64,000 nt of DNA, from assembly GCA_037442105.1 (NCBI GenBank), contig JBBIQV010000010.1:1-64000 (forward strand), written 5' to 3'. The stretch is from Nitrospiraceae bacterium (lineage in GTDB: Bacteria; Nitrospirota; Nitrospiria; Nitrospirales; Nitrospiraceae). The position numbers were made by a program. Below are positions 3,001-12,000 of the stretch, piece after piece. Position 1 is the first letter of the stretch. Each line of letters begins with the position of its first letter.

Positions 3001-6000
3001 GGTGATGTTCTCGCCGAACCACGTCGGTGCACCCTGGCTGGAGATGATTCGCCGGGACGCCAACGGTGAGGAGAGTGTGGACCAATCGCTTCCGGGCGAG
3101 AATGGCCGCTGGAGCCTCTGTCCGGAGAATGCAGGCCGCAAGAATTACAATGTGCATTTCATTAAGCTCCCGATCAAGATCGCCAAGGCTCAAGGGAAAG
3201 AGCCGGCCGTGATCGATCCGAACGGCTTGATCTTCGTGCTCCATGACGAAGAGGCCGCCATCCGCGCCAACGACGATCTCAAGTATCCGTTGGTCGTTCG
3301 CGGCAACATCTACGACTGTGTGGACTGGACCCTGACCAGCGAGTGGGATGACGACGACTACACGAACTTCCAGTCGTCCAAGATCAACACGCACTGGCAC
3401 TTCCTGCAGTTCGACAACCAGGCATCGGACGGCGTGATCTCCGGCTTTTCCTATGAGCAGTCGGTCCGTCCGTTCACGATGTTGGAGAAGAAGAACAAGA
3501 AGGGATTGCCCGCTCCGATGAACACGGTCTTGACCGCGCCGGTGAAGAAGGGCGCCAAGACCATCACGGTGAAGAATGCCGGGCAGTTCCACGCGAACAC
3601 CTTGATTCTCGTCGGTGCGGATAACGTCAAGGGCAACGAGATCGTCCGCATCACCGGTATCAAGGGCAACACGGTTACCCTGAACAAGGGGCTGAAACAC
3701 GATCACCCGGCGAACGACATCGTGACGGTGGAGTTTGTGCGCCAGCGGTTCTGGGTCGATGCCGACGTGGGGACCGTATTCTGGCACGACCATGCGTTCG
3801 GCGCGACCACCTGGCCGCACGGCGGGTTCGGGACGTTCATCGCCGAGCCGGTGGGTTCGACCTATCACGATCCGAAGACCGGTAAGCTTGTCTGGAGCGG
3901 TCCCATTGCGGATATCCGCACGAACGAGCCGGTCGGTCACAGCGTGAACAACAGCTTCCGCGAGTTGATGGTGCAGGTGCATGACACCGTCCCGCACACC
4001 GTCAACATCGTGACGGCAGGCAATCCTCCCGGGCAGCCGGTGGAAGTCGCCCTCGAGGCGGGCAAGACCGTGTCCTTCATGATGCCGGAGAAGATCTACA
4101 TGACGCCGATGCCGTTCCTGAACGGCGGCACGCACACCACCGGCAGCGGCTTGAACTTCAGGGCGGGCCCGATCGCGCAACGGTTGGCGACCAATCCTGA
4201 AGCATCCCAGATTTTCAACAGCCAGATTCACGGCGATCCTTACACGCCGCTCTTGAGGGCCTACGTCGGAGACACGATGGTGTTTCGCCTCCTGCATACC
4301 CTCATGAACGAGTCCATGGTCTGGACCTTGTCCGGCCATACGTTCTTGACCGAGCGGTATGCGGGCGATGCAAACCGCAAGAACTCGATCCACATCGGGA
4401 TCGCGGAGCGCTATGACCTGGTGGTGCCGCAAGCCGGCGGACCACGGTTGCAGCCCGGCGACTACATCCACTTCAACGGCCGATCCTCGAAGTTTTCCGA
4501 GGGAGGCTGGGGGATTCTGCGGGTGTATGACAAGGAGCAGCCGGATCTGAAGAAGCTGCCGGCCGGGTTCTCCGGTCGAAGCGAGATTCCGAAGTCGTTG
4601 CCGGTCTGCCCGGCTGATGCGCCGGTCAAGAACTTCAACGTGGTGGCGATGGATTATCCGGCCATGAGGTTCAACCCGAAGGCGCCGGAAGCCATCGAGG
4701 TGGACTTCGAGCGGAAGATATTGATGACCAACCCCGCGGCGAAGATTTATACCTTGGAAGAAGAGGTCTCCAAGGTTGCCGGCGGGGCGCACCCAATGCC
4801 GCTGACGCTCCGTGTGAATGTCGGGGACTGCGTGAAGGTGAATCTCAAGAACAAGATGAAGACGAGCCGGGCGTCTTTCTCGGCGATCGGGTTGGCGTTC
4901 GACCCGAAAGACTCGCTGGGCGCCAACGTGGGCAATAACCCCGGCGACCAGACGATTGCTCCGGACGGCGAGCGCACCTATACCTATTACGCGGACCCGC
5001 TCAACGGAGAAACCACGTCGTTGGTATGGGATTGGGGCAATGTGATGACGAATCCGCGGAACGGCCTGTTCGGAGCGCTCGTTGTCGGACCGAAGGGATC
5101 CAAGTATCGCGATCCCAAGACCGGCGCGGATCTCTCCAACAAGAACGCCTGGGCGGCCGACGTCATCATCGATCGCTCGGTCCCTGGTCACGAGAATCGA
5201 CCGAATTATCGCGACGTGGCGTTGTTCTTCCAGGACGAAGACAACATCATCGGCACCAGTTTCATGCCGTACGTCCAAAACGTCGCGGGTCTGACCGGCG
5301 TCAACTATCGGTCGGAACCCTACAAATATCGTGAGGAACTCGGCTGCTCGCTCGGCAAGGTCTTTCAGCCCTGCGTGGCGGACAAGCCGGAAGATCCTGC
5401 AACGCCGATCATCGAAGCGCACGCGGGCGACCCGGTGCGTATCCACGTGATCGGCGCCAGCAACGAACAAAACGGAATGTTCAGCGTCGAGAAGCATGAA
5501 TGGCCGATCGAACCCTTTATGCGAGGTGCCGACCAGATCAGCGTGGTCGAATATTCCGGTTCCGAAACGCTCGATGCGTTCATTCCCTCAGCCGGCGGTC
5601 CCTACCGTCTGTCCGGCGACTATGTGTACAGCAATCAACGGTTGCCGTACTCCCAATCCGGACAGTGGGGCTATGTGCGGGTGTTGCCGGCCGGCGACAC
5701 GCATCTGTTGCCTTTGCATGGCGCAGGCCTCGGCGTGAAGAGCGCTGAAGTCGAACAGCCGGCGGCTCAGGTGATTCCCGTCGCTGTGAAGTAGATCGGG
5801 ACGGCCTGCACGGGCCGGTGATGTCGGAGACAAGGGGGAAGCCGCAAGGCTTCCCCCTTTTTCTTTAGAGTACGAGTTTGTTAGGATTGGTAAAGTTCCA
5901 GAAACCGTGAGGCGTGAGACATGAGAAGTAAGAAGTGTCGTCCCTACTTTTTCCTTTTTGCTTTTGTCCTTTGCCTTGGGAGCCATGCGTCGGCCTATGA

Positions 6001-9000: not shown

Positions 9001-12000
9001 CCGATGTGACCGCGGCATTCTGCGAATTCTTGCCGTTCACTGGAGTAGTGGTAGCCCAAAAGAGCTTCCGTGTTGAGAATACGGATGCCGATCCGGATGA
9101 TCCGAAGTCGGTGAAGGGTGTGCTCCACAACCCCCACAGCTTCTTCGTGAAGGGGTCCTCCTCTTCGACTGACTTCAACATCGGCCTCGCGGAGAAGGGC
9201 TCCAAGCTGGACAAGCCGGTCAAATTTAAGGGCGGTCAGGAGAAGACCGGCAGCACCTACCGGCTGCAGTGCGACCAGCATGAGTTCATGCAGTCCTTTT
9301 TCCTGCCGGTGTGGAATCCCTACCACGTTGTCGTGAAGGATGACGGCTCATTCGAGATCAAGGATGTGCCGGCCGGCAAGCACAAGATCATTGCCTGGCA
9401 TCCGTTCGCCGGGAAGTTCGAGGCGGAAGTGGATGTGACTGAGGGCGGTACGGCCAACGTGAAGGCCGAGGTGAAGAAGTAAGGCGCTTGATCCATTGAG
9501 ATTGCGGGGTAACCCGCGAAGGCAAAGGGCCGTGGTTCGTCGAACCACGGCCCTTTGTGTTTCCGCGGAATTTCGGTCACCTGCACTCCTTGCCTTTCGA
9601 TTCTTGGTCTAGGTATCATATCAAAATTTCTAGAGATATCAGGAGATTGGTTTGCCACGGGAACTCTCTCTCGCAGAAATCTTTCAGCTTGGCTACTACT
9701 GGGAAACCAAGATCCTGTTGACCGCCGTCAAGCTCGACCTGTTTTCGGCCATCGATGGGCGATCCCGAACTGCCAAAGAGGTCGCCGACCGACTGGGCGC
9801 CGATGAGCGGGCGCTAACCCTGGTGATGAATGCCCTGGTAGCCATGCGCCTGCTGACGAAAGAAGGGGATTCTTATGCCAACACAGAGGTTGCCGGGACT
9901 TATCTCGTGAAGCATGGGCCCCAGTACGTCGGGCATCTGCTCGTGCTTCACGACGCTGAATGGGACAACTGGGGGAAGCTGGAACAGACGATCCGCACGG
10001 GTCGTTCGCCGGTCACGAAGCACGTTTTCGAAACCGATCCGGACTTGGGCGTGAACATCCTCTCAGTCCTACATCGTATCGGCCGGCAGAGCGGTCCCGA
10101 ATTCGCGAAGCGGCTGGCGTTGCATGAGGCGAGGACATTGCTTGATCTCGGCGGAGGAGCTGGGACGAACGCCATTGCGTTCGTGACGGCCTATCCCAAT
10201 CTCACCGCGACGATCTTCGATCTGCCGGCGACGTTGCCTCTTACAGAGAAGACCGTCAAGGAAGCAGGCCTGGAAGGACGCATTGCGCTCAAGGCAGGGG
10301 ACTTCAATCAAGACCCCTTGGGCGGCCCGTATGATCTAGCGCTTATGTCGGACATTCTCCACTATCAGGATTTCAACGCGAATGCAGCCGTTGTGAAAAA
10401 GGTCTTCGCGCACCTCGCGCCTGGAGGCCGGCTGGTGATCAAGGATCGATTTCTTGACCCAGCCGGCACCGGACCGGCGTGGACGACCGCGTTTGCGGTG
10501 CATATTCTTGTGAATACCGAGAGAGGCGGCTGCTACCGCACGGCAGACGCGATGCGTTGGATGGCCGACGCAGGCTTTGAATCCGTAACCGAGTTGGAGC
10601 AGACCGCCGTGGTGCAGGGCACCAAGCCGCGTAAGAAGTAGAAAGGCAAAAGGAAAAAGTAAAGTATGGTGGAGTGGCTGAAACAACCGGGGTTCATCGG
10701 AACCCACGCGACCATCGGGGCTGACCTGAGTCAACTCATGGCCACCCTGTTCACCGGGCTGTTCGTGCTTGGTTGGTTCCAGGCGAAACGGCATCAAGGG
10801 CATACCCACCATTGGTTGATGCTGGGCGGGATGGTCGCCATGCTCGGCTTCTTCACCAGCTATTACCTGTTCCGCCAACTCGGGGTGCTGGCGTTCGAGG
10901 GAAAAGCAGGTTTCGGCGGATCACAGGCTCTGTACGACAACGTCTTTATTCCGCTGCTGACGGTGCACATCATCCTCGTCGTCATCGGCTTGGTGATGGC
11001 GGTCTATATGATTGTGCTCGGCTTTCGTGCGCAAGCCATGGCCGGCGGCAAACGCGTGCTCAAAGAGACGCTCTTGCAAACGTCCTGGGAAAGGGTCGGG
11101 ACTATTTTGGGAGGCATCACCGCGCTGGTGCTGTTGCTATTCCTGTTCCGCGTCATGTCTGCAGGATTTTCTTTGCGCAAGCTCACGGTCTACATCGGCT
11201 TGCTGGTACTGGTGGCGATTGTCTTCGCAATCGAGATGATTATTCAGCGCATCTGGCCGAACGGCGCGCACCGGCATCGGGCGCTCGGCCGCTTTACCAT
11301 GATCATCTACTGCATCCTGTTCGTGACGGGAACGACGACGTACACCATGCTCTATATTCTGTATCCGGGGAAAATTGGATGAGTGATGGGTGATCAGTAC
11401 GGGGCTTCGCGATGTTGACGTGCGGCTGCGGGCGGTGGATGCATGCGGAGGGAGTGGAGGAGCGTGTGACGTCCACGGGCGAGGCGACGTGGTTCGTGCG
11501 GTCCGAATGTCGAGGCTGCGGCCTGCGGGTCGGCGTGGATGTGCCGGCCGGTCAGGAGGAAGGTCTGGTCGATCGCATGATATGGACGGATGATGCGCGC
11601 CATCGGCTGGACCGTCTCCCTCCGTATGTGGCTCCGCTCATTAAACAGGACGTGGAATCGTTTGCGCGGCTTCGAAAGCAGCGCGTGATCACCTATGATC
11701 TGATCGCACAAGCGAAGGCCGGAGATCTTGTGACGTGGGATCCCGAAGCAGAGCGACGCCTTGAGAATGTTCCCGGTGCTGTCCGGGCGATGGCACGGGT
11801 TGAGCTCGAACGGACAGCGGTTGAGCGTGGCGGATCTCGGGTGACCGTCGCATTGATGGAAGAAGTGAAGGCACGCTACTTCGGCATGGCCGCGCAACAA
11901 GGCTAGCGCGCATTATTCATGAGCACTTCTGCTGCAATCGCGCATTCGCTGCTGCGACAAGCCTTCGGCGGGCAGGCTCGCCGCTTGCCCCCTCGACGTA

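Follow-up and report, generated by a model that had tools for sequence, protein, structure and literature searches.

Five exported proteins of a Nitrospiraceae bacterium are, on balance, probably type-1 copper proteins that act as dedicated one-electron carriers for several separate redox modules. Two of them, g01098 and g01100, are encoded in the window, the 64,000-nucleotide stretch of contig JBBIQV010000010.1 analysed here. The family is widespread and mislabelled, and its matches (2,608 clusters covering many phyla) do not sustain the earlier note's proposal of a family new to Nitrospira; as its genes accompany oxygen-reducing and further redox enzymes in many bacteria, the products are probably electron shuttles of respiration at large and not a special metal-oxidation wire.

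Sequence signature of the five paralogues

The open reading frame of g01098 (5921–6841, forward strand) specifies 306 aa with a signal-peptide-like N-terminus, and alignment and tree place it in an oxidase-linked clade; that of g01100 (8688–9482, forward strand) specifies 264 aa and belongs, according to profile, model, synteny and tree, to a clade linked to a bd-like oxidase. BLASTP and phmmer searches with both proteins, run on the genome's complete set of 24,641 stop-to-stop frames, returned exactly the five loci named before, at 25–51% identity (E 2e-13 to 5e-101; next match E 0.6). A family profile recovered the same loci, each at E<=3e-65, followed by a sixth match (1.5e-5) to a 1,977-aa frame that in the BLASTP/phmmer search had matched through the C-terminal sandwich only.

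Seven positions are invariant in the alignment of the five paralogues, namely H137, Q201, C202, H205, M208, C60 and C112. The previously described pattern of an upstream His with Gln-Cys-x2-His-x2-Met is therefore constant among them, but its Gln, which precedes the Cys in 102 of 127 motif-bearing Nitrospirota sequences, does so in just 3 of 79 from other phyla and was rejected as a family feature. The predicted copper ligands are H140, C201, H204 and M207 in g01098, where the segment that opens with the first His ligand and closes with the axial Met, delimited by the invariant columns, occupies 6338–6541 (forward strand), and H147, C195, H198 and M201 in g01100; the corresponding Cys pairs are C64/C115 and C56/C112.

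Existing annotation points elsewhere: family proteins are usually labelled 'carboxypeptidase regulatory-like', or else 'rhamnogalacturonan lyase domain', and the only Pfam matches above cut-off in the five paralogues are to the sandwich domain. The absence of any cupredoxin annotation had been overstated, since g00433 gives a sub-threshold match to Cupredoxin_1 (E 0.0058). NCBIfam has no family for g01098 or g01100, the nearest ESM Atlas clusters consist of unnamed Nitrospirota and Verrucomicrobiota proteins, and the cupredoxin part alone yields one lead there, at 0.77. No experiment on any family member was found in the literature searched.

Predicted fold and copper site

The predicted structure (pLDDT 95.6, pTM 0.92) has a Greek-key cupredoxin fold, and its top Foldseek matches are NirK, amicyanin and plastocyanin. 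Cupredoxin matches span model residues 76–183, corresponding to 8991–9314 (forward strand) in g01100, whereas those to transthyretin-like proteins cover about 79 residues scattered over 1–238; the model thus places a cupredoxin domain within a transthyretin-like (CarboxypepD) sandwich, so that the two domains proposed earlier are both predicted, nested and not in tandem. The two are probably stapled together by a disulphide.

A PDB search with a single sequence returned nothing significant, cupredoxins being reached by profiles only. The family profile matches amicyanin 1sf3 at E 2.5e-4, with the His-Asn and Cys-x2-His-x2-Met elements in register with its copper ligands; a His and the C-terminal Cys, His and Met are thereby aligned with a known type-1 site. 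In 86 diverse sequences the predicted ligands are kept in 83, 83, 83 and 78, and they are among the best-kept residues of proteins only about 30% identical. From this register and the fold model we infer that the five proteins bind type-1 copper, a reading that the model, the Foldseek matches and the conservation of the ligands strengthen at the level of prediction.

Gene context in the window and in Nitrospirales

The gene upstream of g01098 is g01097 (905–5794, forward strand), a giant MnxG-like multicopper oxidase of 1629 aa counted from the first ATG (1623 aa had been given), which contains a complete type-1 motif (H453, C530, H535, M540) and four HxH motifs and whose best solved relative is MnxG 9bxa (E 8.7e-77). 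Between the two lies a terminator-like hairpin with a 12-pair stem and a T run (5832–5869, forward strand); it is a lead only, because 7 such sites were found against 7.5 in shuffles. A TPR/HEAT-repeat protein identified by Pfam (6866–8239, forward strand) separates g01098 from g01100, and such a gene also occurs near family genes in loci L132, L138, L140–L142 and L144. Further along, g01100 heads a bd-like oxidase cluster that comprises, on Pfam evidence, a DUF420 (CtaM-like) membrane protein (10666–11382, forward strand) and two copies of a cytochrome bd-like oxidase subunit (13276–15156 and 18799–20733, both forward strand), the second followed by three c-type cytochromes (20810–25057). The role of CtaM is described in the available part of PMC9145763.

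The gene neighbours reported earlier for the five paralogues were all recovered. In a quick tree calculated without bootstrap the paralogues fall into four separate clades that track gene context, and each Nitrospirales subfamily keeps its own neighbour; the links to the giant oxidase and to Cyc2 are conserved for particular subfamilies. A recent expansion of the five copies was considered and rejected. For the g01098 subfamily, 56 of 71 giant-oxidase matches have a family gene following them. Every giant oxidase (47/47) carries the type-1 motif, and 40 of 41 genomes have both the family and the oxidase. Divergence of the oxidase and of the next family gene is correlated (Spearman 0.88, 46 pairs, 0/2000 permutations), which speaks for co-duplication only, because such a value is expected for linked genes and the regions were chosen for adjacency. 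The family accompanies bd-like oxidases in 42 of 48 Nitrospirota genomes and, outside the bacterium's own order, in 16 of 22 against 3.7 expected. The g00433 clade belongs to a Cyc2–dihaem cassette; its Cyc2 type is restricted to 6 of 41 genomes, a count that rests on one query and may miss other Cyc2 clades. Adjacency to Ehr is sporadic (2 of 8 regions), and Ehr was therefore rejected as the conserved partner it had been taken for.

Association with haem-copper oxidases in other phyla

The bacterium's own genome gave no haem-copper oxidase match; in other phyla, cox/cta genes accompany the family in 62 of 79 loci, which were picked by one motif and likeness to one query and include related, non-independent genomes. 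Among these loci ctaA is present in 29, cyoE in 31 and the DUF420 gene in 16. The family and coxI co-occur in 73 of 78 genomes, against 20 expected, in one phylum sample (301), and the family is present in 79/79 coxI-positive genomes of another (201). In 7 of 25 loci the family protein is fused to a CuA-bearing CoxII with its type-1 motif intact, the full CuA motif being present in 6; Pfam confirmed the fusion in 3/3, and the model of the fused protein has a pTM of 0.56 with a linker of low confidence. Fusion to cytochrome c was seen in 2 of 16 long relatives scanned. Across 32 CoxII frames the CuA motif was found in 26 and a haem c motif in none. Anammox-like neighbourhoods were absent from 25 loci of the phylum of genome G171.

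Terminal oxidases, which the earlier note overlooked, are the strongest link of the family, including the bd-like cluster headed by g01100. The haem-copper oxidase operon setting, the tracking of coxI and the CoxII fusion are new here, and no description of the fusion architecture was found in the literature searched.

Interpretation and alternatives

If the five proteins are dedicated carriers, the exported protein would carry single electrons at the outer face of the membrane. In Nitrospirales, old subfamilies would each have a module of their own: g01100 would work for the bd-like oxidase/cytochrome cluster connected with nitrite respiration, both g01098 and g00592 for the giant multicopper oxidase, and g00433 for the accessory Cyc2–dihaem cassette. 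A bolder version, which we put forward tentatively as possible but short of probable, would make the family an unrecognised general donor to bacterial terminal oxidases, a plastocyanin-like substitute for cytochrome c in Acidobacteriota, Myxococcota, Omnitrophota and others, with a copper-tethered counterpart of caa3; g01100 would then link the nitrite oxidoreductase cytochromes to the bd-like oxidase, and g01098 would feed or drain the giant oxidase.

The neighbourhood and the fusion suit copper delivery equally well, and the main rival, in our view an unlikely one, is that of a copper chaperone or assembly factor, which would keep copper in its type-1-like site and pass it on to CuA/CuB, the multicopper oxidase or the bd-like enzyme. 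The frequent proximity to ctaA, cyoE and DUF420 genes agrees with such a role, as do a Sinorhizobium plasmid on which a family gene neighbours an SCO gene and cbb3 genes, and the presence of CupA, EfeO and FtrB among the structural matches. A further carrier is also not strictly needed, because the oxidases keep entry sites of their own (the CuA and type-1 motifs counted above), and published levels of oxidase and next gene are unmatched, those of the family gene being the lower: the oxidase changes 16-fold and the next gene 1.5-fold in N. marina, and the next gene's transcripts lie about 4- to 9-fold below the oxidase's in N. moscoviensis. Nevertheless, a full Cys-His-His-Met set with a short amicyanin loop is an electron-transfer arrangement, and copper delivery hardly explains either the cytochrome c fusion or a clade placed beside the haem-only partners Cyc2 and dihaem cytochrome. 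Pfam matches of the five paralogues include no PCuAC or Sco family, and the motifs of these two in the available part of PMC9145763 differ when compared by eye.

The earlier note had joined all five in a periplasmic Fe(II)/Mn(II)-oxidation wire that would, in the manner of rusticyanin, connect the respiratory chain with Cyc2, the giant oxidase and Ehr. Each of the 6 strong Cyc2 copies, which come from four related genomes, shares its cassette with a g00433-clade gene, the giant oxidase resembles MnxG, and a preprint (10.1101/2024.12.25.630300, available part) proposes Nitrospira metal oxidation from Cyc2 and mnxG genes, but it describes cluster 3 Cyc2 as uncertain in function. The rarity of this Cyc2 type beside the near-constant pairing of family and oxidase, the four separate clades and the sporadic Ehr adjacency make a single wire quite improbable, as does the oxidase gene's rank of 19th in transcripts in an N. 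moscoviensis chemostat study under conditions described as nitrite-oxidising; metal oxidation suits one accessory copy at most.

For g00433 only, the Cyc2–dihaem–cupredoxin cassette might be a redox-sensing relay to a hybrid histidine kinase and not an energy pathway. Next to the cassette, in the bacterium's own genome and in 4/4 relatives with strong Cyc2, lies a homologue of an 855-aa hybrid kinase, and distant 'methylamine utilization' relatives stand directly before an EAL-domain gene in 2/2 regions, but the kinase is convergent in some genomes and co-directional in others and may simply regulate the cassette, which leaves the relay a yet smaller chance. That the proteins bind no copper and have a structural or carbohydrate-binding role, in line with their annotations and sandwich-only Pfam matches, is scarcely credible given four ligands that are in register with those of amicyanin and best kept at about 30% identity.

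The reading of the proteins as dedicated carriers bears on the electron path from nitrite to oxygen in Nitrospira without a haem-copper oxidase and on the job of its highly expressed giant multicopper oxidase. Small exported proteins can be expressed with ease, and each subfamily points to its likely partner, which opens the matter to testing. If the reading is true, the labels 'carboxypeptidase regulatory-like' and 'rhamnogalacturonan lyase domain' would hide thousands of blue-copper proteins that serve aerobic respiration. The result also speaks against taking the five genes as a sign of metal oxidation.

Comparison with known systems

Amicyanin shares the cupredoxin fold (1aac; Z 8.7, rmsd 3.0, 86 aligned), and its His-Asn-x-His and Cys-x2-His-x2-Met, with the same short loop, are in register with the family (1sf3). 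Unlike amicyanin, a single domain of about 105 residues that partners methylamine dehydrogenase, the family has two nested domains, the cupredoxin being inserted in a second sandwich, with an extra Cys pair and 12–20% identity; methylamine dehydrogenase genes were absent from every locus examined.

Nearer in layout are the RefSeq proteins named 'methylamine utilization protein', which we take to be linked to MauL and its CDD model. They have the two-part layout and the ligands of the family, in which a cupredoxin is likewise followed by a sandwich with a Trp-His strand, and profile A3 aligns with two of them across both domains (E 1.4e-31 and 1.5e-29). Unlike the family, they have no Cys in the place of the C-x-F motif's, and they form a distant long-branch group with EAL-domain genes adjoining downstream. 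In one of the two EAL regions the relative also follows a DUF3034 gene and a truncated globin. No model that confers the MauL name was matched in Pfam or NCBIfam, and no paper on MauL, or joining MauL, 'methylamine utilization protein' and copper, was found in a search largely confined to literature outside subscription journals.

The cupredoxins of NXR clusters (kustd1699/kustd1713 type; Kuenenia, Nitrospina), called blue copper proteins in the available part of PMC11897245, may belong to the family, judging from cluster content. A 2013 paper, in the part available, already mentions cupredoxin-like genes in the same cluster, together with a multicopper oxidase, a bd-like oxidase, a TorD-like chaperone and cytochromes, and likewise proposes copper carriers; architecture, wider distribution and fusion do not figure in that part.

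The g00433 clade, unlike g01098 and g01100, shares its locus with genes for Cyc2 and a dihaem cytochrome, as AcoP/rusticyanin does with those for Cyc2, dihaem cytochrome and oxidase in Acidithiobacillus ferrooxidans. The order Cyc2, dihaem cytochrome, cupredoxin from g00435 to g00433 resembles the cyc2-cyc1-acoP gene order of that organism. For AcoP, too, a shuttle and a stabiliser role are debated (PMC5982212, available part). AcoP and rusticyanin are single-domain proteins whose likeness to the family was seen at fold level only (Z 8.4, 11% identity), and neither is among the 35 PDB sequences that the profile picked up at E<=10. In caa3-type oxidases cytochrome c is fused to subunit II; the CoxII fusion is alike in tethering an electron carrier to the CuA subunit and differs in that the tethered unit is a predicted copper protein at the N-terminus.

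Architecture and predicted copper site

The family has just five full-length members in this genome (87% complete): the two window proteins g01098 (306 aa, 5921-6841, forward strand) and g01100 (264 aa, 8688-9482, forward strand), and the paralogues g00433, g00592 and g01891 on contigs C3, C4 and C22, respectively. The genome-wide search recovered the same five loci put forward in the earlier note. All five have N-termini that by eye resemble signal peptides, and share H137, Q201, C202, H205, M208, C60 and C112 in the alignment (g00592 numbering). As previously claimed, Pfam names only the C-terminal part, except that g00433 also has a weak Cupredoxin_1 match; an NCBIfam family was not found for g01098 or g01100.

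The model of mature g01100 (92-sequence alignment; pLDDT 95.6, pTM 0.92) matches cupredoxins at residues 76-183 (Cupredoxin_1 4hcf, Z 10.4; plastocyanin 7zqe, Z 10.0; amicyanin 1aac, Z 8.7), while only about 79 residues, scattered over 2-238, align with transthyretin-like domains such as that of carboxypeptidase D (Z 12.3, rmsd 1.9); because of this distribution, the predicted architecture is a cupredoxin domain nested in a discontinuous transthyretin-like sandwich. Another match of the sandwich (model of window 8766-9479), about as good as that to carboxypeptidase D, is to the hydrazine dehydrogenase complex of Kuenenia, in its small subunit (6hif_Y, Z 10.5); the likeness is probably of fold only. 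The family profile matches amicyanin (E 2.5e-4) and purple cupredoxin 5fc9 (E 6.5e-7), in both cases with the His-Asn and the Cys-x2-His loop in register. Among 86 sequences (the five paralogues plus 81 cluster representatives of 215-340 aa among 150 listed), the ligands His, Cys, His and Met are retained in 83, 83, 83 and 78, and two extra Cys, presumably joined by a disulphide, in 81 and 84. The Gln-Cys-x2-His-x2-Met pattern, described earlier as invariant, is so in the five, but its Gln is lineage-specific across the wider family.

Distribution of the family

The family spans many phyla and is not a new one of Nitrospira, as had been proposed; 2,608 clusters (50% identity) match g01100 at E<=0.001, part of them through the sandwich alone, and 281 at 1e-10. 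A motif scan found at least 605 relatives in GTDB genomes, the titles of the best 79 of these loci being from Myxococcota, Acidobacteriota, Omnitrophota, Verrucomicrobiota, Gemmatimonadota and others; plasmid records add genes of Sinorhizobium and Rhizobium, and JGI labels 2 of the 21 listed cluster members 'plastocyanin'. The domain is also fused to trypsin-like, Ig-like, CARDB, ankyrin and peptidoglycan-binding domains (P0123, P0131, P0134, P0151, P0162, P0179). Plasmid records named 'methylamine utilization protein' match more weakly, with both domains and the ligands shared. Two such relatives lie directly 5' of EAL-domain genes (L006:4559-8878, L007:4886-8840), one of them preceded by a DUF3034 gene and a truncated globin, and this position suggests a sensing cassette.

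Genomic partners in Nitrospirota

The family and the giant MnxG-like multicopper oxidase (g01097; window 905-5794, forward strand) each occur in 40 of 41 Nitrospirales genomes, both being missing from the same one. Of the 71 oxidase matches extending to the C-terminus, at least 56 have a family gene within 1.5 kb downstream (36/37 genomes), a lower bound, as 37 family matches fall outside the listing. In a 119-row tree the five paralogues split into four groups: g01098 and g00592 in one large oxidase-linked clade, g00433 in a clade of seven beside Cyc2, g01100 in a clade of seven beside a bd-like cluster, and g01891 alone on a long branch. Orthologues of g00592 are placed 3' of a second giant-oxidase copy in five genomes. 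Our genome has a second giant oxidase (65-69% identity), truncated where its contig ends (C44:5-1639), and the assembly may lack a further family copy. Near g01891, a 400-aa two-domain multicopper protein (g01897, L003:12999-14201) with a type-1 motif in its first domain only adjoins two small cupredoxins, a hemerythrin and a Crp regulator.

Orthologues of g01100 head a run of methyltransferase, DUF420, PCP_red and bd-like genes, which persists without the giant oxidase in two of the regions read (L139, L155). The bd-like oxidase is present in 42 of 48 Nitrospirota genomes with a strong family match (16/22 outside the order). CtaM-like DUF420 proteins are known from haem-copper oxidase assembly. 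At window 10666-11906 DUF420 and PCP_red precede the bd-like oxidases, in a genome where no coxI match was found; other phyla have the two near cox genes as well. This supports a copper-containing bd-like enzyme. Elsewhere in the window, two adjacent c554/c7-type pentahaem cytochromes (50068-52618) lie near a second NxrC-like gene (~48.8 kb).

A search with Cyc2-like g00435, a single query by which other Cyc2 clades may go unseen, found matches in 6 of 41 Nitrospirales genomes; a preprint (10.1101/2024.12.25.630300) reports Cyc2, from three clades, in 6 of 7 Nitrospira genomes from filters. Cyc2, a dihaem cytochrome and the family gene adjoin a hybrid histidine kinase in all five strong-Cyc2 genomes (L001:8230-13713 on C3; L118-L121), with two copies of the cassette flanking a single kinase in G163 and G169. 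In four relatives a g00433-clade gene and the kinase are near all six strong Cyc2 copies, which is not so for the sole weak copy. It is plausible that g00433 takes electrons from the dihaem cytochrome, which does not imply a metal source. A 599-aa cytochrome with 24 CxxCH motifs (L001:17571-19367) lies 4 kb from this cassette. Another C3 cluster (L004:2110-16542), adjoining type II secretion genes, encodes a 1969-aa SdrD_B/beta-helix protein, two small multicopper oxidases, an Ig/laminin-G protein and a subtilase with MopE-type metal motifs.

Association with haem-copper oxidases in other phyla

Haem-copper oxidase subunits or ctaA/cyoE were found in 62 of 79 family loci, and in 43 of the 49 of at least 11 kb, frequently in the orders actC-actD-actF, family, coxI or cytochrome b, multihaem, family, coxI. 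These 79 were chosen by one motif and one query. A less biased comparison comes from two samples of genomes, with counts that are not p-values, as related genomes are not independent. Among 301 genomes of the phylum of G171, probably Omnitrophota from the tree, 78 have the family, 79 coxI, 73 both (20 expected by independence) and 217 neither. Among 201 genomes of the phylum of G172, all 79 with a close coxI fall within the 101 with the family (76/76 and 98/198 without the unpublished G497, G522 and G625).

In 7 of 25 loci of the G171 phylum (L158:2155-3636, L159, L160, L163, L165:2108-3595, L169:724-2208, L174), CoxII carries a second, N-terminal family domain whose type-1 motif is intact, each directly 3' of a free family copy; the CuA motif is full in six, the remaining one being cut by the locus end. 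Pfam found COX2_TM and COX2 in the three fusions tested, and in the model of one (pTM 0.56) both parts fold around a low-confidence linker. Two further loci have a second, longer family copy without a scored CoxII match. Cytochrome c domains occur in 2 of 16 long relatives.

Published data

Lucker 2013 (PMC3578206) describes two cupredoxin-like proteins with a multicopper oxidase in a cluster common to Nitrospira, Nitrospina and Kuenenia, and proposes copper carriers to a terminal oxidase or bc complex; the cupredoxin-like proteins probably correspond to g01098 and g01100, because no other cupredoxin, the oxidase aside, was seen among the 22 window proteins scanned. In the N. marina table of PMC8115632, a 1627-aa oxidase changes 16-fold (padj 1.6e-18), apparently being higher at low oxygen, the adjoining 306-aa 'carboxypeptidase regulatory-like' protein gives 24-45 spectra (1.5-fold, padj 0.19), and two more so labelled, of 305 and 307 aa, were detected. 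In N. moscoviensis (PMC6606698) one oxidase gene is 19th by transcript level, and the two genes after it, of 930 and 918 bp, are 130th and 147th. Position, length and label point to family membership of these neighbours, and the step down would fit a terminator-like hairpin between oxidase and g01098 (5832-5869). Kuenenia kustd1699 and kustd1713 are termed blue copper proteins (PMC11897245) and were detected in proteomes (PMC6423088). Our literature search found no study of the family.

Proposed function

After export, each protein very probably coordinates a single copper in a site of amicyanin type. The copper would then alternate between Cu(I) and Cu(II), linking a cytochrome with an oxidase or other membrane module, and the sandwich may decide partner choice or act as a spacer; this role as electron carrier is the reading we favour, with some reserve. 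That the family instead serves as a copper chaperone is rather unlikely. The observation of the earlier note was confirmed, and its interpretation, a new family of type-1 copper carriers that wire Cyc2, the giant oxidase and Ehr to the respiratory chain, is supported only in part: Ehr is not a conserved partner, as hyfB follows g00592 orthologues in only 2 of the 8 regions that lie apart from the giant oxidase, and a unified wire for metal oxidation appears improbable. Both NiFe CxxC motifs are absent from the HyfG-like large subunit on C4 (L002:18300-19889), as would be predicted of an Ehr complex. For the Cyc2-linked g00433, a sensing relay beside its hybrid kinase is less probable still, and with the ligands so widely retained it is scarcely credible that the proteins bind no copper.

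In summary, these putative electron carriers would work like amicyanin, plastocyanin and AcoP, yet belong to none of them as tested, and the 'methylamine utilization' proteins are distant relatives. Distinctive here are the nesting of the two domains, the association with oxidases in several phyla and the fusion to CoxII, a copper-tethered counterpart of the caa3 oxidases.
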